A DNA stretch of 32,000 bases from Candidatus Saccharimonadota bacterium (GTDB lineage: Bacteria; Patescibacteriota; Gracilibacteria; BD1-5; UBA6164): positions 870,001 through 902,000 of the forward strand of contig OZ245768.1 of the NCBI GenBank assembly GCA_965227835.1, in the 5' to 3' direction. A program made the translations under genes and the position numbers. Under the pieces are notes generated by a model. It was given only the letters and a program-made list of their open reading frames with translations. It had not been told where the DNA came from and made no database searches. Positions 1 through 32,000 of this stretch are shown here, piece by piece (the first letter of the stretch is position 1; each line of letters opens with the position of its first letter).

Positions 1-860
1 CTACCTTATTTCAATACCCATCCGTAATACTTGATAACAATATTTTAATATGTTCAAGATTTTTACAATCTACATTTTTTATACCTAAATCTAGTCTTTT
101 TATTCAGTAATATCATAAGATTTTCATTAAAGTTTTGTTATCTCTTCATCAATTTCTTTCTAAGATTGTAGATCATTTTATCATTCAAAACTCAGTTCAA
201 TATCAAAAGTTTAATTTAGAGAAATATAAAACTCAAATAGTTTTTAAATCTACTTCTACCTTATTTCAATACCCATCCGTAATACTTGATAACAATATTT
301 TAATATGTTCAAGATTTTTACAATCTACATTTTTTATACCTAAATCTAGTCTTTTTATTCATACAAGACCTAAAACTTTTTTTAAGGTTTTGATATTATT
401 TAATCAATTATTTATTAATATTGTAGATCATTTTACCACTCAAAATTCAGTTCAATATCAAAAATTTAATTTAGAAAATTTGATTAATAAAATAGTATTC
501 AAATCTACATCTATCTTATTTCAATCCTTATCTGTAATACTTGATAATAATGTTTCAATATGCTTAGAATTTTTATAATCTAATTCTTTGCTTGGTAAAT
601 CTGGTCTTAGTACTCATATGTATTCTAAAATCTTTTTTAAAGATATCTTATTTATTATTCATAAACCATTCTTTAAAATCATCCTTCATGTTACTTTTTG
701 AAAAACTGTCATGTGTCAAAAATATCAATCTATAAAAGCTTCAATTCAAACGGTTCTTAAATCAATTTTTAATTCATTTCAATATTTATCTGTAATACTT
801 GATAAAAGTATTTTTAAATGTTCAGGATTTTTATAATCCAATGAATCTGATCATTTCCGT
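1..860 (-). repeat. Tandem 255-bp (85-codon) coding repeats inside paralog A
   Basis: Positions 1-106 are base-for-base identical to 256-361. Further, more diverged units start near 511 and 770. The period is 255 bp (a multiple of 3) and the reading frame is preserved. Confidence 0.9.
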
Positions 861-1567
861 AAAAAATCATCACTCAATAAAACCTCTAAGTTCTCCTTAA
901 ATTTATCAGAATACTTTATAAATACTGGGGATTTATCATTTATTTTATCTCATTTACTTACATTTGATAAAACTGATGGTTCAATAATTCAATAATATAC
1001 ATATGTCCCTTCTCATATCTGATTATTTATTGCTATTGTCAGTGATGTATTCTCTGTTTTTAATGTAATTATCTTGTACGGAAACTTTCTAAAACTATTT
1101 TTTTTAAAATTTTCTACATATGTATTAATCTCCACTCATTCAAGATTCAATCAATATTTTTTATGCAAAACCTTTAGAAGTGTTTCATATTTTTTGACTT
1201 CTTTAGGAGCTTCAGATTTATTATTAGGTTCTTTTCTTTTTTTTAACAAGTTTAGGCTAGGTTCTTTAGGAACAAAAATAGAAAAATTTAAATCATTTTC
1301 TTTATCTTTTTCTATCTCAATTATCTTTTGTGTTGCCAGTGATACAAATTTGTCAAAAAAAGATTCTACTTCTCTATATCAATTTCTTAAAAATACTTCA
1401 CTATACCTAGATTCTATTTCTTCGTATATTTCTAAAAATCTATCTATAAAATCTTCCTTTGATATTCAATATTTGGAAATTTCTTTGAATAAAATATCCA
1501 TCTTTGTATAACTTCAGATGTTTTTGCAAGGAGCAATAAATGTAGGTGTGTTTTCAATTTTGTTCAT
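1..1567 (-). CDS. Hypothetical repeat protein, paralog A (partial; 3' end lies beyond the left edge). Unique ~250-aa N-terminal region followed by at least 4 tandem ~85-aa repeats
   Basis: The minus-strand frame from ATG 1567 (MNKIENTPTFIAPCKNIGSYTKMDILFKEISKYGISKEDF...) has no TAA/TAG down to position 1 when TGA is sense. The repeats contain many TGA codons. Repeat consensus by eye: LDYKNxEHIKILLSSITDKxGNKxxxDLxTIG...FGYGTEFG..xGSTILxNNGG...LKKxLxxxGIxRPDLP. The N-terminal region is clearly homologous to the fragment at 3760-4278. No family recognised. Confidence 0.7.
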
Positions 1568-2575: not shown

Positions 2576-3775
2576 GTCTGTTGCGTTTTGACTTTAAAAA
2601 GAGTTTTAATTAAGAAAAGTACTAAATAGATGAAAGATTTATAAAATTCATCTATTTTTTGTTAAATTATAGCCATTTTTATATATAATTTAGGATTTTA
2701 GACGCAATCCACCTAAGGAAACTAATCTAAACTATTGGGACTTCCTCTAAAACAACTAATCTTTTGAGATTAAAAGATATAGCTTCCATAAATGCAGTAA
2801 ACTGATTTTTTACTACAGACTTATACCTCACTCTATGATTCATTTTTGAAAATACTCTCTCATAAGGAGATCTAAGTTTAGAATAAAACTTATCTTTATC
2901 CTTGTTCTTATCTTTCATATTATTTTTCTTTATTGCACATAGATGTAATCACTTCTTTTTTGTTGATATTACAGCCGGTCAAATACAATATCACTTATCA
3001 GCATATACTGCTCATGAACTTGGTAATACATGCTTCATTCACTTTGCATCTGTTACATTAGCTTGAGTTATAGCTATCTTGTTTATCATTCAAGATTGCA
3101 TATCAACACTAGCATGTTTTTTATAACCATACCAAAATTTATTTTTTCACTTAGATCAAATTTTAGCTTCCTTATCATTAGCAACTTTTGGAAGAGTTTC
3201 ATTATTCATTTTTTCATATCATTCTTTTATTCATTTATCTCTTTCTTCCCATAAATTAGCTTTAGTAACTAAATGAGAAGCATCTACAAATGTAAACACT
3301 TCACTCATATAACCCTTATTTGATAATTGATTTTTTAAATCTTCAAATATCTTTGATAGTTCATTTGTTCATATCTTTTTTCTTGCTCTTGTGAATATAC
3401 TATGATCTGGAGTTTTATCTGTTAATTTAAATCAGCAAAACCATTTACCAGCTAAATTTTCTGCAAGATATTTCTCTAACTCTCTATCTGATAGATCTTC
3501 CATAAACTGGATTAGTAAACATAGAAATAATTTTTTTACTCAATATCATACATGAGTTTTTCATAGATCTATATTTTTTAGTATTTTATTTACTCAATCA
3601 AAGTTCCACAATTTCTTAAATTTACGATATTGATGATTTTCTGGAATTAGCTCGTTTAGGATAACAAAACTTATTTGATTTGATTCTCACATAGGTATTT
3701 TCTTAGAATATAATTACTATCTAATTATATCTCTTTTTTCTCTTTTTAATAGTCAAAGTTTAATTTACAACAGGC
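2576..3775 (-). mobile_element. IS5-family insertion sequence (~1.2 kb) inserted into paralog B
   Basis: The homology between paralogs A and B breaks at ~2575 and resumes at ~3776. The ends are imperfect inverted repeats: left gtCTGTTGcgTTTTGACTtTAAAAAGAG, right (reverse complement) gcCTGTTGtaaattaaacTTTGACTatTAAAAAGAG. A single transposase ORF lies inside. Boundaries are good to a few bp only, and no target-site duplication could be identified. Confidence 0.8.
2727..3692 (-). CDS. IS5-family DDE transposase (DUF772 N-terminal region plus DDE_Tnp_1)
   Basis: With TGA=Gly the product is 321 aa: MGESNQISFVILNELIPENHQYRKFKKLWNFDG...LSDRELEKYLAENLAGKWFCGFKL...GSKGKNKFWYGYKKHASVDMQSGMINKIAITQANVTDAKG...VYADKGY...YSKLRSPYERVFSKMNHRVRYKSVVKNQFTAFMEAISFNLKRL. 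The WFCG, FGYK.H, D..SG.I, ADKGY and R..VE..F..K motifs are typical of IS5/InsH-type enzymes. Ends in TAG. Confidence 0.9.
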
Positions 3776-4278
3776 TCTATAACTATTCTATAAGGTAGTT
3801 TCCTAACAAGATCTTTATTAAGGGTTTCTATATATGTTTTCATTTCTACTCATTCAAGTTCTAATCAGTATTTCCTGTGTAGAACTTTTAAAAGTGTTTC
3901 ATATTTCGGGGCTTCCTTAAGAATTTCAGATTTAATATTAGGATTACTTCTTTTTACCAAGTTTAGATTAGATTCTTTAGGAATAAAAATAGAAAAGTTT
4001 AATTCATTTTCTGTATCTTTTTCTATTTCAATTATCCTTTGTGTTGCCAGTAATACAAATTTATCAAAAAAAGATTCTATTTGTATATATCATTTTCTTA
4101 AAAATACTTCACTATATCTAGATTCTATTTCTTCATATATTTCTAAAAATCTATCTACAAAATCTTCCTTTGATATTCAATATTTAGAAATCTCTTTAAA
4201 TAAAATATCCATCTTTGTATAACTTCAGGTGTTTTTGCTAGAATCAATAAATGTAGATTTAATCTCAATTTTGTTCAT
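3760..4278 (-). pseudogene. Repeat protein paralog B, N-terminal fragment, truncated by the IS (stop codon lies inside the IS terminal repeat)
   Basis: From ATG 4278: MNKIEIKSTFIDSSKNTGSYTKMDILFKEISKYGISKEDFVDRFLEIYEEIESRYSEVFLRKGY...KLPYRIVIEPVVN*. This is near-identical in layout to the paralog A N-terminus. It runs into the IS at ~3775 and stops at TAA 3760-3762. Confidence 0.8.
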
Positions 4279-7883: not shown

Positions 7884-9116
7884 TTACCTAAGCCAAGCTG
7901 GATTTTGAGTTAAAGAAGAACCAAATCTTTCATTATTGTCTCAATTATCTTTAGTTTTAATATTAATTATTGGAACTCTAATATCTTTTATTTCAAAAAC
8001 AGTCTTTCTATTAACAAAATCATTATATTTACAGTCATCTTGTGGAATTTCTATATCTATATTATAAATTTCTTGTCAAAAATTAGTTTCTTCTCAATTT
8101 AAAAATTTAAAACCAAAGGCAGAATAATAATCATTACCATTAGTATAATAATAATGTACTACACCACTACAGTCTCAAACATAAGTTTGTTTTCCTTCAT
8201 TTGATATACTTTGAATATCTAAAATTCTATCATTTGTTAATTCAAATTTAAAATCTTCATCCAAATACTTAAAACCCTCTGATGTAAAATGTTGCTTAAA
8301 TTCTAAATCTTCACTATATCATATTTTAGTCCACCCCCCTCAATCAGTACTCATATCACAATAAACCTCAAATTCATCATTTCAACTAGGATTTATCTTA
8401 TAAACTCAATCTCAATTATCCAAACTAGATTCTAATATCCTCTTACAACTAGAATTATATATTGATTTTATTAATTCAATTCAACTTCAACTAATCTTAT
8501 CATTATCATCTATATGGGATATATATTCATCTGCTGTTGTAGCTATATCTAATTCTCAACTATCTCTTACATCTCAAATCTCTTGAACTGGAACATTTAA
8601 ATTATCTCAACCCCCTGTTAATATTCATAGCTTCTTTCAACTTACCTTAACTTGTCTATCTGCATAATCTATATCATTAGATAATACTTCTCCCTTAAAT
8701 AAACTTACAGTTTCATTTGTTTCTTCTAGTAATGCCATTAATTGAAAGTTCTTTCTATTGTCTGTAGCATAGTATGAAAAATATGTATTATCTAGTGGGT
8801 CTTTACCTTCTTTATCATATTTAATTTTTTTTAGTACTTCTTCTCATGCATATCCTTGATATGCTATAGTATTTCAATTAGTTTTAACTTCTATATAGTC
8901 ATCGGGTATTGGAAGTCTTCATCTTGTTAGTGATAGTTTTAGTCAATCTCATATACTTTCTAGTTGTACTGTTCTATTTGTATCTCTTACTCAAGATAGA
9001 TAGTCTGTATAGCTTACAAATCATATTGTTCAGATTATAGCTAGTATTGTTACTACTACTATTAGCTCTACTAGGGTGAATGCTTTTTTTAGTTGGAGGG
9101 TTAGTTTGTTTTTCAT
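7884..9116 (-). CDS. Type IV pilin-like protein with a C-terminal fibrinogen-like YCDxxxxGGGW domain (putative pilus-borne adhesin or lectin)
   Basis: 410 aa with TGA=Gly. The N-terminus MKNKLTLQLKKA|FTLVELIVVVTILAIIGTIGFVSY is a prepilin-type cleavage/methylation signal (F+1, E+5). The C-terminal half contains SCKRILESSLDNGDGVYKINPSGNDEFEVYCDMSTDGGGWTKI (motif at 8331-8363). This matches the fibrinogen-related-domain core C..I...G...G.Y.I.P.....F.VYCDM.TDGGGWT. Ends in TAA 7884-7886. Confidence 0.85.
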
Positions 9117-9184
9117 TTGAGGGGGAGTTAAGAGTTAAAAGTTATAAAGTTAAAAGTTTTTTATAGTTTTTTTATAAACATTTA

Positions 9185-9648
9185 TATTAGATAAAGGTCT
9201 GAATGCAAATAACTTACTGTACAAATGGCTAAAGACTTCTGCCTAAAGGGTGTAATGGTAATATGAGACAAATGGCTAAAGCCATCTGTTGAAATGAATA
9301 TAATAATTTTTGGTTAATTTGCAATTAAGTTTTATTTTGCAAAAATCTTACTATGCAAATGGCTAAATGCAAATATTGTTAATTGAGCAAAGGATTGAAT
9401 ACAAATATTGTTAATGGGCAAAGGGCTGAATATAAATATTGTTAATGGGCAAAGGGCTAAAGCCCTCTGTTGAAGGGAAACAATAGATTTAAAAATAATT
9501 TATAGAGTAAAATTTATTTTATTATTCTCTACTCTGTAATAGTAATTTATATTCTATTCCTTCTGTTCTATTCCCCTCTCCTCTAAGGAGAGGGGTTGGG
9601 GGTGAGGTTACCTCGGAGAGGATTAGGGTGAGGTTTGTTCAGATCAAA
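9185..9648 (+). repeat. Composite non-coding repeat, copy 2 (same orientation as copy 1)
   Basis: Contains hairpin units at 9272-9285 (atggc-taaa-gccat) and 9453-9466 (agggc-taaa-gccct). Three tandem ~31-bp units lie at 9371-9477 (aaatattgttaatgggcaaagggctgaatat...). The GC-rich hairpin cccctctcc-tctaa-ggagagggg lies at 9573-9595 and is followed by ttgggggtgagg ... ggagaggattagggtgagg. Confidence 0.85.
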
Positions 9649-9649
9649 A

Positions 9650-10054
9650 CTAGGTAAGAAATTTTTCTAAACTAGAACTTATCTCTTTTCATATTAAATG
9701 TTCTATCTTACAAGCATTTATAACAGCATCTTTTTCACTAACACCAAGTTTCTCTATAAAAAACTTTACAAATAAATCTCTATTTTTTTTAGTTTGGGCA
9801 ACTATTTCTTCTCAATATCTTGTAAGTTTTATAAATTTATTCTCATCCTCTTCTATCAATCACTTTTTTATTAAAGACTTTATTCATATAGAACAACTCC
9901 CAGGAGTAATATCTAGTTTTTTAGATATATCAACAGCTCTGGAATATCAATTTGATTTCAATAATTCCTCAACAGTAAAGAGATAATGTGTGGCTGAATG
10001 AGTTACCTCATTACCCTCAAACTCTTTCCAAACTGAACTTTGATCATAAACCAT
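9650..10054 (-). CDS. DtxR/MntR-family metal-dependent transcriptional repressor
   Basis: 134 aa: MVYDQSSVWKEFEGNEVTHSATHYLFTVEELLKSNGYSRAVDISKKLDITPGSCSIGIKSLIKKGLIEEDENKFIKLTRYGEEIVAQTKKNRDLFVKFFIEKLGVSEKDAVINACKIEHLIGKEI... This matches the DtxR N-terminal wHTH plus dimerisation layout (HYL..I.EL...GY.R..DI...L.....S....K.L...GL......LT..G.........FL...LGV....A...AC..EH). Ends in TAG. Confidence 0.8.
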
Positions 10055-22321: not shown

Positions 22322-22897
22322 ATGAAAATTATGAGTAAAGGTTTTACCCTGGTAGAACTTATAGTAGTTATAACTATATTAGCTATATTGGGTACTATAG
22401 CTTTTGTATCCTTACAAGGTTATTCTCAAGATGCTAAAAATTCTAAAGTTGCATCTGATATAAGAACTATAGTTACATTTATTGAAACTAAACTCACACA
22501 AGGTAAGATATATATGACAGATTTAGTTGATGATGATATTGATTTAAGTTCTACAAATAAAAATGGTATAAACACATCTGAAACTTTCGGTTCTGGTATA
22601 AAACTCTCTGATAGTACATATAAAGTTGGAGCTATAAATTTCACTTGATTAAAACAAAATGGAAATGATTTTAAAGATAGTGAAAATAATGATTATGTAG
22701 CAGCAGTAGCTATAAATGGTTCTGATAATTCTTACTATCAAATTGCTGGTCAGCAAAAAAATACAGATGCTACATACACTACAGTAGTTAAAGGTAACTA
22801 TGTACAAATCATTGATAGTGATACTGTTGGTTTAGTGTCTGAGACATCATCAAATAAGTGAGTAGTTAGTGGAGAAATAATATCTAGCTTATATTAA
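22322..22897 (+). CDS. Type IV pilin (prepilin-type N-terminal cleavage/methylation domain)
   Basis: 191 aa: MKIMSKG|FTLVELIVVITILAILGTIAFVSLQGYSQDAKNSKVASDIRTI... (G-1, F+1, E+5). The standard ORF 22322-22648 continues through TGA to TAA 22895-22897 and ends ...GEIISSLY*. Confidence 0.9.
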
Positions 22898-23618: not shown

Positions 23619-24701
23619 TTAGTACAAAGACTCTTTTATTAATTTAGGGTTATTAGCATATTTTATCCCTTCATCTTCTGTAATAAATCACATATTTATC
23701 AAATCTACTATATCTTTTTCCAATATCTGCATTCACTCTCTTGTTCACATTTGTAGTACAGAAGGTAGCTGATGAAGTTCATTTTCTCTTATCAAATTTG
23801 CCACAGCTCAACTATTTACTAGTATTTCTTTTGCCATTCTTATTCATGTACCATCCCTAGTTTTTAAAAGCCTTTGAGAAAATACAGAAACCAAAGAATC
23901 TGCCAACTGCATTCTTATCTGGCTTTTTTCTTGTCATTCAAAACTATCCATAATTCTTGTTATAGTTTGATAAGCTCATCTAGTATGTAGAGTTGAAAGG
24001 ACTAAATGTCCTGTTTCAGCTAAAGTCAAAGCTATTCTTATTTCTTCTTTTGATCTCATTTCTCCAAAAAATATAATATCAGGAGATTGCCTCATAGCTC
24101 ATACAAGTGCAGTTTCATAGTTAGGAACATCTTTTCAAATTTCTTTATGCTCTATAATGGATTTTTTATGATCATGTATGTATTCTATAGGATCTTCTAT
24201 TGTTATTATGTGTTTTTCATAATTAGAATTTATATAGTCTATAATAGCAGCCATAGTTGTAGTTTTTCACGATCAAGTAGGTCATGTAACAAGTATAATT
24301 CATTGTCATTTTTTTGTTACTTCTTTGAATATATCAGGCAGATGAAGTTTATCTAAACTAGGTATTTCTGAAGTTAAAAGCCTCAAAACTATCATATAGT
24401 TTGATAGTTGAAAACTTATATTTACTCTAAATCTCCTATTACCAAAAGTAAGAGAAAAATCTAGATTTTTACTTTTCATAAGTTCATCATGTTGTTTTTC
24501 ACTTATTATAGATTGAACAAATTCAAGTGTATCTTTCCACTTCAATTTTTCTATATTTTCATTTATAAAAATTATTTCTCATCATATTTTGACAGCTGGA
24601 TATGCTCAAACTGTTATATACATATCAGATCCCTCGTTATCAATCATAACTTGTAACAATTGATCTTTCAATATATTTTCTTCCAAGATAACTTTTTCCA
24701 T
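23619..24701 (-). CDS. pilT: Type IV pilus retraction ATPase PilT
   Basis: 360 aa with TGA=Gly: ...[20 protein letters not shown]...FRVNISFQ...[45 protein letters not shown]...[38 protein letters not shown]...[21 protein letters not shown]. The Walker A codons at 24261-24290 include three TGA. Fragment 24306-24545 is in frame. Ends in TAA. Confidence 0.9.
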
Positions 24702-25954: not shown

Positions 25955-27949
25955 TTATATATTTCAATCTTTAGATATTATATTTTCCGATTCTTGTATT
26001 ACTGTTTCATAGTCTCCTTTTTTCATCAATTCTTTCATTAAATTGTATTTACTTCTTATTCTGTCTTCTTTCAAAGATATTTTATATTTTTGTTCATTTT
26101 CTATAGCCTTTTTCAGATAATAGTTTATCTTTTTATGTATATATCACTGTTTTATATATCTTTTTGCTTCACTTTTTAATTTAAGAACCTCACCTGTTAA
26201 CCATAATTGTTCAAGTTGTCTTATTATACTTTTTAAATAATTTTCAGCTTTTAGTTTTTCTAATTCTTCTTGTATTTCTTGTTTAGTATTTCATTTTATT
26301 CTTCTTATATCTCTTTTAGGTATTGAGTTTATTTCTCAAATTTGTCTTAAGAAATCTTCTTTGTCTTTTATTTTATCCTTTTCAAAATCTCTTTTTAAAA
26401 GCATTAGAGTCAAATCATCATCAAAATTTGATCATCATCTAAAATTTTTGGCATCTTTTATTATAAAATCATATATTTTCCTAATATCTTTTTCAAAATC
26501 AGCAGCTTTTTTAAAAGTTTGGGATAATCTATCTATTGAATAAAACTCTCAATCTATAGATTTAGACTCTACTATACCATCACTATAAGTAAGAAGTATG
26601 TCATCTTCTCACATATCTATAGTACTTACTTTTATATTATCTGAATCTTTTATAAGCCTTATTCAAGCGGCTAATCATCAAGGAATTATTTTTTCAACTT
26701 CTTTTTTTTCCTTCCTGTATAAAAGTATGGGTTCATGTCAAAGCCCTACAAATCTAAGCTTATTTATATCTTCTTTTACTATTTCAAAAAATATTCATGT
26801 TATAAAATTCATTGATTTTAAATCTTGTTTTAATCCATTGTTTATTTCATATATGAGTTTTTTTATTTCATACTTTTCAACAAATTTATTAAAAAGTCTG
26901 GTAAGAAGTGTTATTATAAATCATGCTTTTATTCAGTGTCATGTTGCATCTCATATAAAAAAAGTATATTTCTTGGCAAGTTCACTATATCAAAAAGTAT
27001 CACCAGATATCTTATGAGCACCCAAAATTTTACCATAGAGATCATATCATACTATATCTTTTTTTGAAATATCCTTTATTAAACCTTTATGTATATTTTC
27101 TAGTTTAGCTGAAGCTATTTGGTTTTTTACTTTATCTTCTTCTTCTATAAGAAGATTTATCTCATCTAAAAGCTTTTTCTTTTCTAGGTTTTTTTTGATT
27201 TTTTTATAAAAATTTAAACTTTCTTTGAGTTTATAGAAAATACCTTTTTTAACTTTTTTTTCTTTTTCTTTTTCTACTAAATCATTACTAACAGTTTCAC
27301 CTATTAATTTCATAGCTTCTATTTTAGCATTTTGTTTAAGCTTTTGTTCTTCGCTTTCTTTTTCTTTTTCTATTTGTTTTAATATAAATTTTTTCTCTTT
27401 GTTATAAAAATCTATCACGAGTTTATTTCAAGAGTATTCCTCTAAAAAGCTTCATAGTAATTTCACAGCATCACTTGCTTTTCATGTTTTTGCTAAATGA
27501 TGAGACTCTTGCTTAATATTTTTAAACCTAATTTCAAATCTTTGTTTTTCTATTTTATTTTGATATTTTTCTTTTTGTTTTTTGTATATTTCTGAAAGTT
27601 TTTCTATTTGGGTTTGTTTATCTTTGTATAATTTATTTAATTTTTCTTTTTGTTTCAAAATTGACTTATCTTCATTATTTTCTGACAATTTACTTAATAA
27701 ATCTTTATACGAATTTTCCTCTTTTAAATATACTTCCCTTATAGATCTTTCTGCTTTTTCCCACTCATAAGTAGCTATAAAAAACTTAATTGCCTTTATA
27801 GCCTCTTTATAATTTTTTATATTTTGAGTTTTTATACCTTTATTCTCGGTTTTTCAAAAAGTACTAGAAAAAAATCCTTTTTTGTTTTGCTTTTTCTTAA
27901 TTTCTATTTTTCCTTGTATTTTCATTTCATTTTTTACTTGTTCAACCAT
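25955..27949 (-). CDS. PP2C-type (SpoIIE/RsbU-like) protein phosphatase domain protein with long Lys/Glu-rich coiled-coil-like flanks
   Basis: 664 aa with TGA=Gly; fragments 27047-27418 and 27482-27688 are in frame. The central region reads ...ISGDTFGYSELAKKYTFFIGDATGHGIKAGFIITLL...MNFITGIFFEIVKEDINKLRFVGLGHEPILLYRKE...IPGGLAAGI...MGEDDILLTYSDGIVESKS...FRGGSNFDDDLTLMLLKR. This matches the SpoIIE/PPM signature (GD.F..., DA.GHG..A, G...P.L, SDG..E, DD.T). The start is 4 nt after the pilB stop and the stop is 3 nt before the pilC start. Confidence 0.75.
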
Positions 27950-27953
27950 ATTT

Positions 27954-29192
27954 TTATATTAATTTAAATGCTTCTTCCATAGTTGTTTCTCATAATAAAG
28001 CTTTTAATAAAGCATCTTGTACTATTGTTATCATTCAGTTTTTAATTGCTTCATCTTTCATTTCATTGTCTGAAGATTCTTCTAATATTAAAGGTTCTAA
28101 ATATTCTTCAACTATTAAAACTTCATGTATTCAAAGTCTTCATTTATAACCTGTGTTATTACATTTATCACATCAAGTTCAATGATAAAATTGCATATTT
28201 TTTAAACTTTCTTCGTCTAGGATATCTTTTAAAAATTCATGTGCTTTTTTCATATCTGAATCTCTAGGGGTATATTTTTCTTTGCAGTTATCACAGATCT
28301 TCTTTCATAGTCTTTGGGATATTACCATTTTCATAGCCGAACTTATCAAAAATGGTTCTATTCACATATTTATAAGTCTTCAAATAGTTCAGGGAGCAGA
28401 GTTTGTATGTATAGTAGATAAAACTAAATGTCCTGTAAGAGCTGCTTCTACTGCTAGAGTAGCTGTTTCTTTATCTCTTATTTCTCATACCATTATAATA
28501 TCTGGATCTTGCCTAAGGAGTGTCCTAAGTCATGATCAAAATGTATACCCTATTTCAGGTTTTACTTGGGATTGATTTACATATTCTATATCATATTCTA
28601 TAGGATCTTCCAATGTAGAGATATTGTATTCTAGAGGATTATAGTTTTTTAATATTCAAAAAAGTGTAGTTGTTTTTCAAGATCATGTAGGACCAGAAAT
28701 AAGTATTATTCAATATTTACTTTTTAATGCTTGTTTTACCCTTTTTAAATTTACATCTATTAATCCTAAAGCTTCTATGTTTGTAAGACTAGAATCTTGT
28801 TTTAATATTCTCATCACAACTTTTTCTCAGTATTTTGTAGGTAGAGTAGAAAATCTTATATCAACATTTTGTTTTTCAATTTCATGACTATATACCAATT
28901 TTCAATCTTGGGGTTTTTTGTTTTCGTCTATTTTTACTTTTGCAAGTACTTTTAATCTAGTTGTAATTGCTGATGTATTAGAATTATCCACTTTATCATA
29001 TACAAAAAAATCTCAATCTTTTCTAAATCTAATCATTATAAAACTCTCATTTGGTTCTATATGTATATCTGAAGCATTATATGATATAGCGGCTTTAAAA
29101 ATGTTATCTATGTAGTTAACTACATCTCATAATTCCTTTTTTATGGAAATGGAATCAAGTTCCTTTGTATTTTTTAGATTTGTTTGTTCCAT
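27954..29192 (-). CDS. pilB: Type IV pilus assembly ATPase PilB (GspE family)
   Basis: 412 aa with TGA=Gly: ...[23 protein letters not shown]...PQDGKL...[21 protein letters not shown]...[22 protein letters not shown]...[10 protein letters not shown]...[62 protein letters not shown]... and the tetracysteine CDNC...[19 protein letters not shown]. Ends in TAA 27954-27956. Confidence 0.9.
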
Positions 29193-29419: not shown

Positions 29420-30580
29420 TTAATTATTTTGATTTATTATGTAGTTTTTCAGTTTATTTATCTTTTCATTTTTTATTTCTTGTTCTATAAAATTATTAAA
29501 ATCTTCTATAGTTTCATACTCTTTACCTTTATATAATATAGTTTCTTTTCAGTCTAAAGTTTTTAACTCATAATCTATAGTAAAAGTTCATCTTTTTATG
29601 GTATTTGTTATTATTTCCTCTATATTTTCTTCCATAATATTTTCAATATAGGTTTCTCCTATACTACTTACCTCTTCAAAATCAATATTTTCATCCTGTT
29701 TTAATATCTGTTCTATTTCTGTATCTTCTACAACTTCTTCTTGTGTGTTTTTATTTTCTTCAAAAACTTGATTTTCATTAAAGTCTATATTTTCTTCAAT
29801 ATTTTCGCTTTGTGAAGAATTTTCATCATCTTTTAAAATGCTATCTTTTAAATCATTTTCAGACACACATTTCTTTGAGTCTATCAAACATTCAAAATCT
29901 TTTTTTGCTTCTAATAAGTTATTTTTGTAATTATCTAAATTGTGTATATCAGGTTTAGTAAAAAAGAATATAGCTATTCAAATAACACTGAATAATACGA
30001 AACTTAGGAAAAAAAACATTTTGGATCATCATTTTTCATTATTTTTAGATTTTTCTTGTTCTAATGAATCCTCTTTTTTCTCAGAATTAAAATCAGATTT
30101 ATAGTTTACAAATAAATCTTTTTCTTCTTCAAGTAAATTTTCTTCTTTTTTTTCAATATCAAGTTTATCACTTTTAATATTTGATTCTTCTTTTTCTAAA
30201 ATTTCAGAATTAGTTAAATGAATTTCTTCTTTCTTTTCAAAATCAATTTTATCATTTTTAATATTTGGGATTTGATTATCTTTTATTTCTGAAGTATTAT
30301 GTTTTGGTAAAGCTATACCATTTTGTGTTTGATTAATTTTAGTTTCTTGTTTCGATGATAAATCTGATTCTATATTTGATGTTTCTTGTATTTTTTGCTC
30401 TGTTTTATTTTCCAAAGATTGTGATGATATATTTGGTAAATTTGAATTTTCATTTTCTTTTAAATTACTTTCATTTTGTACTTTTATAGCATCTGTTTTA
30501 TTTTCTTCATCTTTTTTTCAAACATCTTTGCTCTTTTTTATAGAGGATATATTTAGTTTAAATCATTTTCCTTCTGCCAT
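29420..30580 (-). CDS. Hypothetical acidic single-pass membrane protein (low-complexity E/K/N-rich regions on both sides of one TM helix)
   Basis: 386 aa with TGA=Gly. Fragments 30029-30415 and 29588-29887 share one frame and are joined by ...KNNEKGGSKMFFFLSFVLFSVIGIAIFFFTKPD... (the TM segment). Starts MAEGKGFKLNISSIKKSKD. Ends ...NKLKNYIINQNN* (TAA 29420-29422). Confidence 0.65.
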
Positions 30581-30649
30581 CTTTTGTTTGATAAAATATT
30601 AAATACATTGTTATGATATAATATTTTGAGATTTTAGTCAAAATTTAGC

Positions 30650-30790
30650 TTTTCAAATTACAAAAAAGATTTGACTTTTTATTTTTTATTTGCAAAATCC
30701 ATTTTAATGTTTTTCTAAATTTACTAAAAGAGGAGGATAAAATGAAAACATTGAAAAATATATTTCTTACTTCAATACTACTAATCTTTA
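30650..30790 (+). repeat. Cassette 5' module, copy 1 (promoter-like region, 5'UTR with AGGAGG, and the first ~45 nt of the CDS encoding most of the signal peptide)
   Basis: From TTGACT at 30671 through the first ~45 nt of the CDS, the sequence is identical to 31337 onward and, as far as the window goes, to 31939 onward. Confidence 0.85.
30671..30698 (+). promoter_or_regulatory. Candidate promoter of the secreted-protein cassette (repeated at 31337 and 31939)
   Basis: TTGACT (30671-76), 16-nt spacer, CAAAAT (30693-98). A strong Shine-Dalgarno AGGAGG lies at 30731-36, 5 nt before ATG 30742. Confidence 0.4.
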
Positions 30791-31212
30791 GCCTAAATGC
30801 TAATGCTTCGGTAAATGATTATATTATTTCATCTTTGAAAAGCTATAGCTGGTATGAAAAGTTGGAAAATTATGGCAGAAAAAATAATGGAGAAAGAAAA
30901 CTAGACTACTATATACGATTAAGTATCGTAAGATATCTTGAAGATATAGGTCTATATAATGCAGGAGACACAAAAAATTGTAATGATAGCTCTCGTAATA
31001 GTGTAGAAACTGATACATGTTATAAAGGTACTCTACAGCAAAATATGAATCTATCTAAAACTTTAAAAAATCCAGAAGTGCAAGATATTTTGGGTAAAGT
31101 AAGCTTTTACACAATAGTTAGTATTCAGGAAGGAGTGATGTTAGAACATATTTTAAGCAGACAACAGTTTGCAAGTTCTAACCGTTATAGTTATGTGATT
31201 GGACCTTATTAG
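30742..31212 (+). CDS. Small secreted two-cysteine protein, cassette paralog 1
   Basis: 156 aa, no internal TGA. Signal peptide MKTLKNIFLTSILLIFSLNANA|SVND. Shares the core LDY.IRL.I..YLE..GLY.AG.T.NC.D...(9-10)..DTCY.GT..QN.NL..TLK with paralog 2. Ends in TAG. Confidence 0.8.
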   Translation: MKTLKNIFLTSILLIFSLNANASVNDYIISSLKSYSWYEKLENYGRKNNGERKLDYYIRLSIVRYLEDIGLYNAGDTKNCNDSSRNSVETDTCYKGTLQQNMNLSKTLKNPEVQDILGKVSFYTIVSIQEGVMLEHILSRQQFASSNRYSYVIGPY

Positions 31213-31283
31213 ATACATAAAAAGTAAATCATAAACTGGATATGTAACTGAAGAAAAAAATTAGTTCCAAAGTAAGAAATATA

Positions 31284-31316
31284 AAAACCGGTGAGCGAGG
31301 CTCACCGGTTTTTTAA
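31284..31316 (+). terminator. Rho-independent terminator of cassette 1
   Basis: aaaaaccggtgagc-gag-gctcaccggtttttt: GC-rich 9-bp stem plus T-run. Confidence 0.8.
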
Positions 31317-31407
31317 AAAAGAGTTTAAAAAAAGGTTTGACTTTTTATTTTTTATTTGCAAAATCCATTTTAATGTTTTTCTAAATTTACTAAAAGAGGA
31401 GGATAAA

Positions 31408-31866
31408 ATGAAAACATTGAAAAATATATTTCTTACTTCAATAATACTAACCTTTAGCCTAAATGCTAGTGCTTCAGTAAATGATGAAATGATTTCGTTG
31501 CTGAAAAAATATAAATGGTATGAAGATTTAAAAAGTTTTGAGAGAAATGTAAGTAAAATGAGTTTAGATTACCACATAAGGTTACGTATTGCAAAGTATC
31601 TTGAAAATGTAGGTTTATACGATGCGGGAAATACAGAAAATTGTACTGATACTGATAAACTTCCCTATCATAACAAAAAGATTGATACATGCTATACAGG
31701 AACCCCTGAACAAAACATTAATCTATTGAATACCTTGAAAGAAGCAGAAGTAAAGAAAAATTTGAGGCAAGTAGATGCTTACACCATAATAAATGGTGTT
31801 AATAATATATTCTTAGAAGATATGGAAAATAAAACATGGACTCAAATACAGCTAAAATGAAATTAG
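31408..31866 (+). CDS. Small secreted two-cysteine protein, cassette paralog 2
   Basis: 152 aa: MKTLKNIFLTSIILTFSLNASA|SVNDEMISLLKKYKWYEDLK...NCTDTDKLPYHNKKIDTCYTGTPEQNINLLNTLK...TQIQLKGN*. It reads through TGA at 31858 to TAG 31864-66. The ATG is preceded by AGGAGG. The upstream GTG (31291) used by the ORF track lies in the terminator hairpin and is rejected. Confidence 0.8.
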
Positions 31867-31884
31867 CTCCAAAGTAAGAAATAT

Positions 31885-31916
31885 AAAAACCGGTGAGCGA
31901 TGCTCACCGGTTTTTT
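31885..31916 (+). terminator. Rho-independent terminator of cassette 2
   Basis: aaaaaccggtgagc-gat-gctcaccggtttttt, the same hairpin as at 31284 with a different loop base. Confidence 0.8.
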
Positions 31917-31919
31917 AAA

Positions 31920-32000
31920 AAAGAGTTTAAAAAAAGATTTGACTTTTTATTTTTTATTTGCAAAATCCATTTTAATGTTTTTCTAAATTTACTAAAAGAG
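31920..32000 (+). repeat. Cassette 5' module, copy 3 (truncated by the window end)
   Basis: aaaagagtttaaaaaaagatttgactttttattttttatttgcaaaatccattttaatgtttttctaaatttactaaaagag is identical to the modules upstream of 30742 and 31408. A third paralog is expected just beyond the window. Confidence 0.8.

Follow-up and report, generated by a model that had tools for sequence, protein, structure and literature searches.

A tandem array of small exported-protein genes with near-identical junctions and diverged bodies in a TGA-recoded gracilibacterium

The locus and its cassettes

At the right-hand end of a 32,000-nucleotide stretch of contig OZ245768.1 (positions 870,001 to 902,000 of the forward strand; assembly GCA_965227835.1, Candidatus Saccharimonadota bacterium, placed by GTDB in Gracilibacteria, BD1-5, UBA6164), hereafter the window, lies a head-to-tail array of genes for small proteins with signal peptides. 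Positions 30671–32000 contain two cassettes in full and the beginning of another (Table 1), and the array borders a type IV pilus cluster with the order pilin-pilT-pilC-SpoIIE-pilB, 1.5 kb away from pilB. The same placement is found in a sister strain represented by a metagenome contig from ENA (L001), which shares the pilin-pilT-pilC-SpoIIE-pilB-orf386 neighbourhood at ~94% nucleotide identity. The flanks of the array are ordinary chromosomal pilus and housekeeping genes, and they are syntenic between the strains.

The window has a G+C content of 24.9%, and it yields almost no long open reading frames (ORFs) when these are called under translation table 11; a dense gene map returns once TGA is treated as a sense codon. 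Under table 4, the Walker A motif GPTGSGKT of the PilB-/PilT-like ATPases reads WPTWSWKT, which places TGA at invariant Gly positions. Because TGA occupies these invariant sites, the genetic code of the host, as read from the DNA, is code 25 (TGA = Gly), which Gracilibacteria and Absconditabacteria use, and all proteins of the window were re-translated with TGA as Gly. The same usage recurs across the whole window, for example at 23619–24701 and 27954–29192 (minus strand). Since table-11 calling shatters nearly every gene, a standard-code annotation of the window would be wrong. In a scan of GTDB genomes, the nearest species representatives by PilB were a Patescibacteria metagenome-assembled genome (MAG) at 64% identity and a Candidatus Gracilibacteria MAG at 52%.

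Repeat finding located copies of the repeat family at 30592/31258/31860 and 30662/31328, giving spacings of 666 and 602 bp, the same two periods that a first-pass annotation of the letters had reported. That annotation had also described tandem autonomous cassettes for signal-peptide proteins, each with an AGGAGG and a common GC-rich terminator, and this description was borne out: the cassettes carry a consensus Shine-Dalgarno sequence 5 nt from the ATG, and the complete ones close with a canonical intrinsic terminator.

Table 1. Coordinates of the array and of neighbouring features in the window
Feature	Position	Strand	Remarks
Unique intergenic region	30581–30669	.	Between the 386-aa minus-strand gene and cassette 1; orthologous in L001
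5' module, cassette 1	30670–30777	+	100% identical to 31336–31443; TTGACT 30671–30676, 16-nt spacer, CAAAAT 30693–30698, AGGAGG 30731–30736, ATG 30742, codons 1–12
Cassette 1 ORF, W1 (P0001)	30742–31212	+	156 aa, TAG stop
Junction 1	31251–31336	+	3' module (AAATTAGYTCCAAAGTAAGAAATATAAAAA), terminator hairpin 31288–31308 with T-run, A-rich spacer
Cassette 2 promoter-like box and 5' untranslated region	31337–31407	+	Box 31337–31364; AGGAGG 31397–31402
Cassette 2 ORF, W2 (P0003)	31408–31866	+	152 aa, code 25
Junction 2	31853–31938	+	3' module, terminator hairpin 31890–31910, A-rich spacer
Cassette 3 start	31939–32000	+	Promoter-like box 31939–31966 and 5' untranslated region; window ends 8 nt before the expected ATG
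Repeat-bearing paralogous protein	1–1567	-	Runs off the window
IS5-like transposase	2727–3692	-	DUF772 + DDE_Tnp_1
Second paralogous protein	3760–4278	-	
Pilin-leader protein	7884–9116	-	410 aa
Pilin	22322–22897		
SpoIIE protein	25955–27949	-	664 aa
A/T-rich hairpin	29384–29420		
Gene divergent from the array	29420–30580	-	386 aa

The identity at the 5' end of the cassettes is exact over a considerable distance. No stretch of identity between W1 and W2 is longer than the 108 nt that start at 30670, a length reached in 0 of 20,000 permutations, and the 107-nt pattern from TTGACT to codon 12 occurs at 30671–30777 and 31337–31443 with 0 mismatches (0 expected in shuffles). The run takes in 36 nt of coding sequence (CDS), through codon 12, rather than the ~45 nt first put forward. 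Past this point, identity steps down from 100% to ~90% as far as ~30806, the end of the signal peptide, and then to ~70%, so that the divergence has the sharp boundary that had been described and is not uniform. The third 5' module (31937–32000) is the same as that of W1 up to the end of the window, and the five copies available in the two strains differ at no more than two positions. The 5' untranslated region (5'UTR) has no significant structure (fold z = -0.23), and a riboswitch or leader was dropped on this ground as the cause of its conservation.

The 3' end of the cassettes is similarly constant. The terminator, CCGGTGAGC-GAK-GCTCACCGG followed by T6, is found in the 32 kb only at the two junctions; it consists of a perfect, GC-rich stem of 9 bp around a loop of 3 nt, with a folding energy of -21.6 kcal/mol (z = -7.7). 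Together with the last ~30 nt before it and the A-rich spacer after it, the hairpin forms a block of 76–141 nt that is 98–99% identical among the window and both L001 junctions.

The first-pass annotation had expected the array to continue past the window and to contain a third ORF. One more cassette is indeed indicated by P0030, a 158-aa family member recorded, like W1 and W2, for this 1.49-Mb contig and probably the product of cassette 3. Since the contig has only three recorded family members, and searches found no fourth, the array is most probably three cassettes long. In L001, likewise, no junction module follows the ortholog of cassette 3 and the array ends there, with the end of the contig 522 bp farther on.

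The encoded proteins and their relatives

W1 and W2 both begin MKTLKNIFLTSI, and in both the signal peptide comprises residues 1–22 (MKTLKNIFLTSILLIFSLNANA|S in W1). Its anatomy, with K2 and K5 in a positively charged n-region, then IFLTSILLIFSL as the hydrophobic h-region, then A-N-A|S with small residues at -3 and -1, is, on inspection of the sequence, that of a signal for Sec export and signal peptidase I (SPase-I). The cassette signal peptides end in ...FSLNANA|S or ...FSLNASA|S before Ser23, so cleavage is predicted after A-N-A or A-S-A, and comparable N-termini are present in all homologs. The protein is thus probably extracellular. W2 depends on code 25 at its very end, where the TGA at 31858–31860 is read as Gly and the TAG at 31864–31866 is the stop. 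The two conserved cysteines and the core motif that had been quoted for the family (LDY.IRL.I..YLE..GLY.AG.T.NC.D…DTCY.GT..QN.NL..TLK) are present in both W1 and W2. In W1, the mature protein of 134 aa contains Cys80 and Cys93, which may form a disulfide, and its C-terminal ~30 aa are unrelated to the C-termini of its paralogs. The cassette proteins possess no lipobox, no Cys before residue 80, and no tandem repeats in the mature part.

It is conceivable that such proteins assist the neighbouring type IV pilus machinery as accessory parts, or that they are its substrates, given the position of the array at the edge of the pilus cluster in both strains. The cassette proteins, however, carry a Sec/SPase-I signal and no match to the prepilin N-methylation leader (G|F-T-L-x-E), a leader that the true pilins of the window (7884–9116 and 22322–22897) do possess, both matching PF07963. 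Moreover, no family member lies near pilB in the two nearest GTDB genomes, those with 64% and 52% PilB identity, and homologs in other lineages adjoin unrelated genes, namely SLT/amidase and Mur ligase genes, thyA/folA, or a CYTH gene. A role in the pilus machinery is therefore considered improbable. By the same token, these unrelated neighbourhoods mean that synteny gives no functional clue and that the link with the pilus genes belongs to this lineage only.

The structural analysis that had been proposed for the mature domain gave a confident model and no fold match. AlphaFold2, run with a 27-sequence alignment, returned an all-alpha model with a mean predicted local distance difference test score (pLDDT) of 84.9 and a predicted template-modelling score (pTM) of 0.73, in which most of the core exceeds 90; within the core, confidence is low only in the loop between the two cysteines. 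On this model, the mature protein would be a compact all-alpha domain with a single loop set between cysteines. Foldseek searches of PDB and BFVD with the model gave best E-values of 4.5 and 0.6 and TM-scores no higher than 0.24, and a poorer first model (pLDDT 61.6) likewise found nothing with E <0.6 or TM >0.25 in these databases.

Relatives of the window proteins have been recovered from a very large sequence space. An HMMER scan of 1.84 billion cluster representatives produced 26 matches at E <=0.001, including P0003 itself, of which 12 were at E <=1e-10; one of the 26 (P0024) is probably spurious, and two further members (P0029 and P0032) were added from other searches. A word-index search with the 27-sequence profile found only 6 proteins, far below the HMMER yield, and the alignment of the three paralogs, when run against GTDB genomes, JGI metagenomes, and IMG/VR, found no relatives; a JGI scan with a motif of the wider family found one single-copy locus. 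Members are 115–230 aa in length, have signal-like N-terminal segments, and contain the motifs Y-x-W-Y, YLE-x2-GLY-x-A-x-DT-x-YC-x-D, and (D)TCYIGT-x2-QN-x2-LL-x-AL. The window proteins clearly belong to the family (E-values of 1e-37 to 1e-10 for the closer relatives), with which they have these motifs and the predicted helical fold in common. Many of the others extend farther at the C-terminus, adding a second Cys pair and an LP[KR] ending; W1 and W2 have lost these features.

The family appears to follow the recoded genetic code. Several database translations show W at positions where the family has G, and these entries therefore come from code-25 hosts translated with code 4. The other family loci that could be retrieved were single-copy in 10 of 10 cases, with G+C contents of 23–34%, and all nine that were tested are TGA-recoded. 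The family is rare and unannotated, has no named member or solved structure, and in the loci examined occurs only where TGA is recoded. Among the closest out-group homologs (L085 5385–5954 and L088 138–695), a TGA occurs 2–3 codons past the C-terminal (S/L)(L/V)PKK; if it is read as Gly, the ORF gains ~27–30 poorly conserved residues and runs into a convergent CYTH gene.

Some candidate identities for the family were tried and rejected. Three members matched phrog_2307 (L-Ala-D-Glu peptidase) at E ~0.01, a match regarded as noise, the family having no conserved His/Asp metal site. Lysozyme/SLT-like, phospholipase-A2-like, and chorismate-mutase-like identities, suggested by motifs, were set aside, the catalytic signatures being absent and no fold match having been found.

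Strain comparison and the history of the array

The comparison of strains for cassette gain and loss that had been recommended revealed such a difference. L001 lacks cassette 1: its unique upstream intergenic DNA runs into the shared 5' module and then directly into a W2-type gene body (LA), so the breakpoint lies inside the identical module. LA is 99.0% identical to W2 over 612 nt (window 31324–31935 against L001 8025–8636), and the second L001 protein (LB, or P0002) matches P0030 at 157 of 158 aa. Because W1 diverged anciently from W2, the simplest account is that W1 was deleted in L001 through unequal recombination between direct repeats. The unique region upstream of the array (30581–30669) shows 3 mismatches and 4 gap columns over ~80 nt between the strains, the usual divergence for non-coding DNA in this pair.

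The L001 array possesses some features of its own. An insertion sequence (IS) occupies 8637–9919, in the A-run between the LA terminator and the next -35 box (the LA|LB junction); its terminal inverted repeats are 13 bp long (CTCAAAACTCCCC / CTCAAAACTACCC, with the consensus CTCAAAACT(C/A)CCC), an in-frame stop interrupts its DDE transposase gene, and no copy of the element occurs in the window. Just past the last cassette, L001 10560–10760 contains nested inverted repeats (ggttaatcctataac...gttatagggttaac; ggtagatcttg...caagatctacc) that resemble a structured RNA upstream of an ORF without a Pfam match, although no Rfam family matched at the gathering threshold.

Nonsynonymous (dN) and synonymous (dS) divergence was estimated by the Nei-Gojobori method under code 25. 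In signal-peptide codons 1–22, all six pairs gave a dS of 0 (none of ~15 synonymous sites changed) and a dN of 0–0.061, leaving dN/dS undefined. In the mature core, the five pairs of different cassettes gave a dS of 0.71–1.05, a dN of 0.17–0.39, and a dN/dS of 0.26–0.55. The orthologs W2 and LA gave 0.011, 0.005, and 0.47, respectively, and six flanking genes compared between the window and L001 gave 0.08–0.37, 0.003–0.044, and 0.02–0.32. Since the core dS is several-fold above that of the flanking genes, the paralogs are, by this comparison, much older than the split between the strains, and recent duplication therefore cannot explain the identical 5' module.

An account of this last kind would hold that the cassettes were duplicated recently, that their secreted parts then diversified rapidly under selection, and that the 5' module is identical merely for want of time. 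The sharp identity boundary, the secreted product, and a nominal dN/dS of 1.64 when the W1 tail at the C-terminus is compared with W2 would all suit it, but the core dS of 0.7–1.05 is near saturation. Furthermore, a core dN/dS of 0.26–0.55 speaks against the diversifying selection on the secreted part that the first-pass annotation had offered as an alternative, the value of 1.64 probably reflects an alignment of the W1 tail with non-homologous sequence, and cassettes 2 and 3 are almost unchanged between the strains. Such a history is accordingly highly improbable.

The other explanation in the first-pass annotation, gene conversion acting on the 5' module, agrees far better with these values, in that 0 of 15 synonymous sites have changed in the signal peptide against a proportion of synonymous differences (pS) of 0.46–0.56 in the mature region. 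The 3' module leads in the same direction. It encodes the ending ...MKLVPK-stop only in LB and cassette 3, lies downstream of the stop in W1, where it is non-coding, and is out of frame in W2, and it is nevertheless still 98–99% identical; constraint on the protein is therefore not the cause. The ending ...MKLVPK-stop is the ancestral C-terminus, relative to which the frame of W2 has been shifted. More generally, because the identity extends over synonymous and non-coding sites, ordinary selection at the protein level is not its cause. W2 and LB are 93–100% identical through about codon 41 (~30866) and only 53–63% identical thereafter, which indicates conversion tracts of different lengths. 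Both marks of concerted evolution are found here, since the repeats are far more similar than the gene bodies and the copy number differs between strains with the breakpoint in the repeat. It is thus well supported that the junctions have been homogenised by gene conversion or unequal crossing-over, with the gene bodies under purifying selection.

A further means by which such a locus could have arisen is as a system of phase or antigenic variation of the Mycoplasma vsp/vpma/vsa type, in which the 5' regions serve as recombinase sites or slippage tracts and a single variant is expressed. The conserved 5'UTR and signal peptide next to differing mature parts, the T-runs in the promoter spacer, and the small, AT-rich, recoded genome of a probably host-dependent organism are all reminiscent of those loci, and the first-pass annotation had recognised the pattern of variable surface or effector gene families. 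Nonetheless, all three cassettes have a full promoter-like box and each has its terminator, in contrast to the unique promoter of vpma (PMC2268961). The cassettes are all in direct orientation, so that recombination would delete rather than invert, and no inverted gene copies were found; no recombinase occurs upstream in the window or on either side in 11 kb of L001, where the only candidate is the interrupted DDE transposase. Nor is there a lipobox Cys or a tandem repeat in the mature protein, and the 16-nt promoter spacer, its T-tracts included, has the same length in five copies from two strains, LB differing by two substitutions only. Finally, the orthologous cassettes are nearly identical between strains. 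These observations leave the variable-family pattern without its usual hallmarks in the available DNA, and phase variation is scarcely credible as an explanation.

The modular units, the conserved 3' hairpin, the strain-variable content, and the IS within the L001 array could likewise bring to mind mobile gene cassettes, carried by an integron-like, phage, or other element and using the hairpin as a recombination site. Recombination sites of the attC type, however, are imperfect and 57–141 nt long, which the hairpin of the array, a canonical intrinsic terminator, is not. Integron cassettes, moreover, lack promoters and adjoin an intI integrase with attI. Here each cassette has its own promoter-like box and ribosome-binding site, no integrase was found in the window or L001, a scan of IMG/VR viral contigs turned up none of the family's members, and no PHROG matched. 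Since, in addition, the flanks are ordinary, syntenic chromosomal genes and the homologs elsewhere are single chromosomal genes, mobility of this sort is the least probable of the explanations weighed here.

Taken together, the locus is best read as a tandem triplication, specific to this lineage, of a gene encoding a small exported protein, in which the junctions have been homogenised and the gene bodies are old, a reading to which a probability of about 0.72 may be assigned. Each cassette would then be an autonomous, monocistronic unit with a promoter-like box, a Shine-Dalgarno sequence, a signal peptide, a mature protein of ~130–136 aa, and an intrinsic terminator. The homogenised stretch would begin at the 3' module, take in the terminator, promoter, and 5'UTR, and reach 12–37 codons into the next gene, and gene conversion or unequal crossing-over between direct repeats would maintain it; the same identical modules would also be substrates for the deletion or gain of cassettes. 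The orthologous cassettes (99.0% nucleotide identity and a dS of 0.011; 157/158 aa) are closer to one another than the flanking genes are (91.5–97.8% nucleotide identity; dS 0.08–0.37). This comparison with the pilus genes stands against a rapid turnover of the cassette sequences, and it suggests a recent exchange between strains or a sweep.

Several points weigh against the reading of an old, homogenised triplication, or at least against parts of it. Extreme selection on the promoter, the UTR, and the early codons could be a further cause of identity in the 5' module, and the near-identity of cassettes between strains could stem from recent inter-strain recombination and not from constraint. 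The sequence TTGACT-N16-CAAAAT is present, as first reported, and conserved in five copies, but promoter-like sites at 25% GC are no more frequent than chance (20 found against 20.1 expected), so the promoter assignment draws on conservation across the five copies and not on statistics. The cleavage site and the disulfide are predictions from sequence, and the ORF of cassette 3 is assigned through a protein record, since the DNA examined ends at 32000. With regard to function, the family has no match in Pfam, NCBIfam, PHROG, or PADLOC and no sequence-profile match in PDB, and it has no conserved gene neighbourhood across lineages.

Neighbouring genes, comparable systems, and significance

An Rfam scan found two tRNAs and nothing else. 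Several other features of the window lie outside the array. The 410-aa protein with a type IV pilin N-methylation leader has a C-terminal match to COLFI (2e-11) and Fibrinogen_C (3e-7), a domain that may be a pilin-borne adhesin. The 664-aa protein combines a long, coiled, Lys/Glu-rich N-terminal half with a SpoIIE/PP2C phosphatase domain and sits between pilC and pilB in the pilus cluster, an arrangement kept in L001. At the far end of the window, two paralogous proteins have ~170 N-terminal aa in common and are separated by the IS5-like DDE transposase; the first of them has several internal repeats of ~75 aa (...KNLEHIKILLSSITDGYxNKV...). Next to the array, the divergent gene encodes an acidic, low-complexity membrane protein with one central hydrophobic segment, 84-nt internal direct repeats (30139–30212 and 30223–30296), and no Pfam match. 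At its 3' end lies a perfect A/T-rich hairpin of 15–17 bp (AAAAAAAAGTAATGC-ttc-GCATTACTTTTTTTT), flanked by A- and T-runs, which is a bidirectional terminator-like element.

Among known systems, the lpl cluster of Staphylococcus aureus on the nuSa-alpha island is the closest in mechanism (Tsuru & Kobayashi 2008, PMC2568036). In that account, lpl is likewise a tandem set of exported-protein paralogs with a conserved stretch in each unit that serves as a site of homologous recombination, and recombination has led to rearrangement, loss, and gain of units from strain to strain (PMC2568036). The conserved stretch is described there as lying in the middle of the ORF, and the evolutionary unit as spanning two adjacent genes (PMC2568036), whereas in the present array it lies at the junction between genes and the unit is the gene body. 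Moreover, the lpl products are described as lipoproteins, unlike those of the array, and the protein families are unrelated.

The loci vpma of Mycoplasma agalactiae, vsp of M. bovis, and vsa of M. pulmonis also resemble the array in being clusters of paralogs in small, AT-rich genomes, with near-identical 5'UTRs and signal peptides and divergent mature parts (PMC2268961). In contrast, vpma depends on one promoter, with silent copies switched on by inversion at recombination sites in the 5'UTR; it also has a neighbouring Xer1-type recombinase, genes that point both ways, and lipoprotein signals (PMC2268961), none of which was found in the array. The resemblance to the vpma and vsp loci is thus superficial. 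A third parallel is the "upstream homology box" of Borrelia (erp/ospE/ospF), where paralogs share a near-identical promoter and leader region attributed to recombination and their mature proteins are divergent. The Borrelia genes, however, encode lipoproteins with known binding to host ligands and are scattered on plasmids, and do not form a chromosomal head-to-tail array.

As for the biology of the host, a closed gracilibacterial genome has been reported to encode type IV pili, peptidoglycan, and S-layer proteins and to lack PilQ, which was taken as a sign that no outer membrane is present, and a host-dependent lifestyle has been proposed for bacteria belonging to the CPR, or candidate phyla radiation (PMC6851277). 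By analogy with that organism, the mature protein of the array would be released outside a cell without an outer membrane. With its signal peptide and the proposed host-dependent lifestyle of the CPR in mind, it could act at the cell surface or on a host or prey cell, and three strongly signalled copies would provide dosage and some functional spread.

A bolder view, tentative and on balance unlikely, is that the family is a new class of extracellular effector of TGA-recoded CPR bacteria (Gracilibacteria and relatives), with a fold lacking relatives in PDB or viral structure predictions, expanded in one lineage into a recombining array beside the pilus genes and giving strain-specific repertoires for attachment to or exploitation of host bacteria, and that the near-identity of the cassettes reflects recent allele exchange between strains that differ by 6%.

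The mechanism itself is a textbook one, in which tandem paralogs are homogenised at their ends by gene conversion and shifted in copy number by unequal crossing-over, and the value of the locus lies mainly in its setting, as the secreted products of uncultivated code-25 CPR bacteria are almost entirely uncharacterised. The family is compact and probably highly expressed, has a confident predicted structure and a copy number that varies between strains, and is thus a candidate factor for host interaction or the cell envelope. The family should be an easy target for expression and structural work, and the array offers a clean, small example in which the tract lengths of gene conversion in a reduced genome may be followed.

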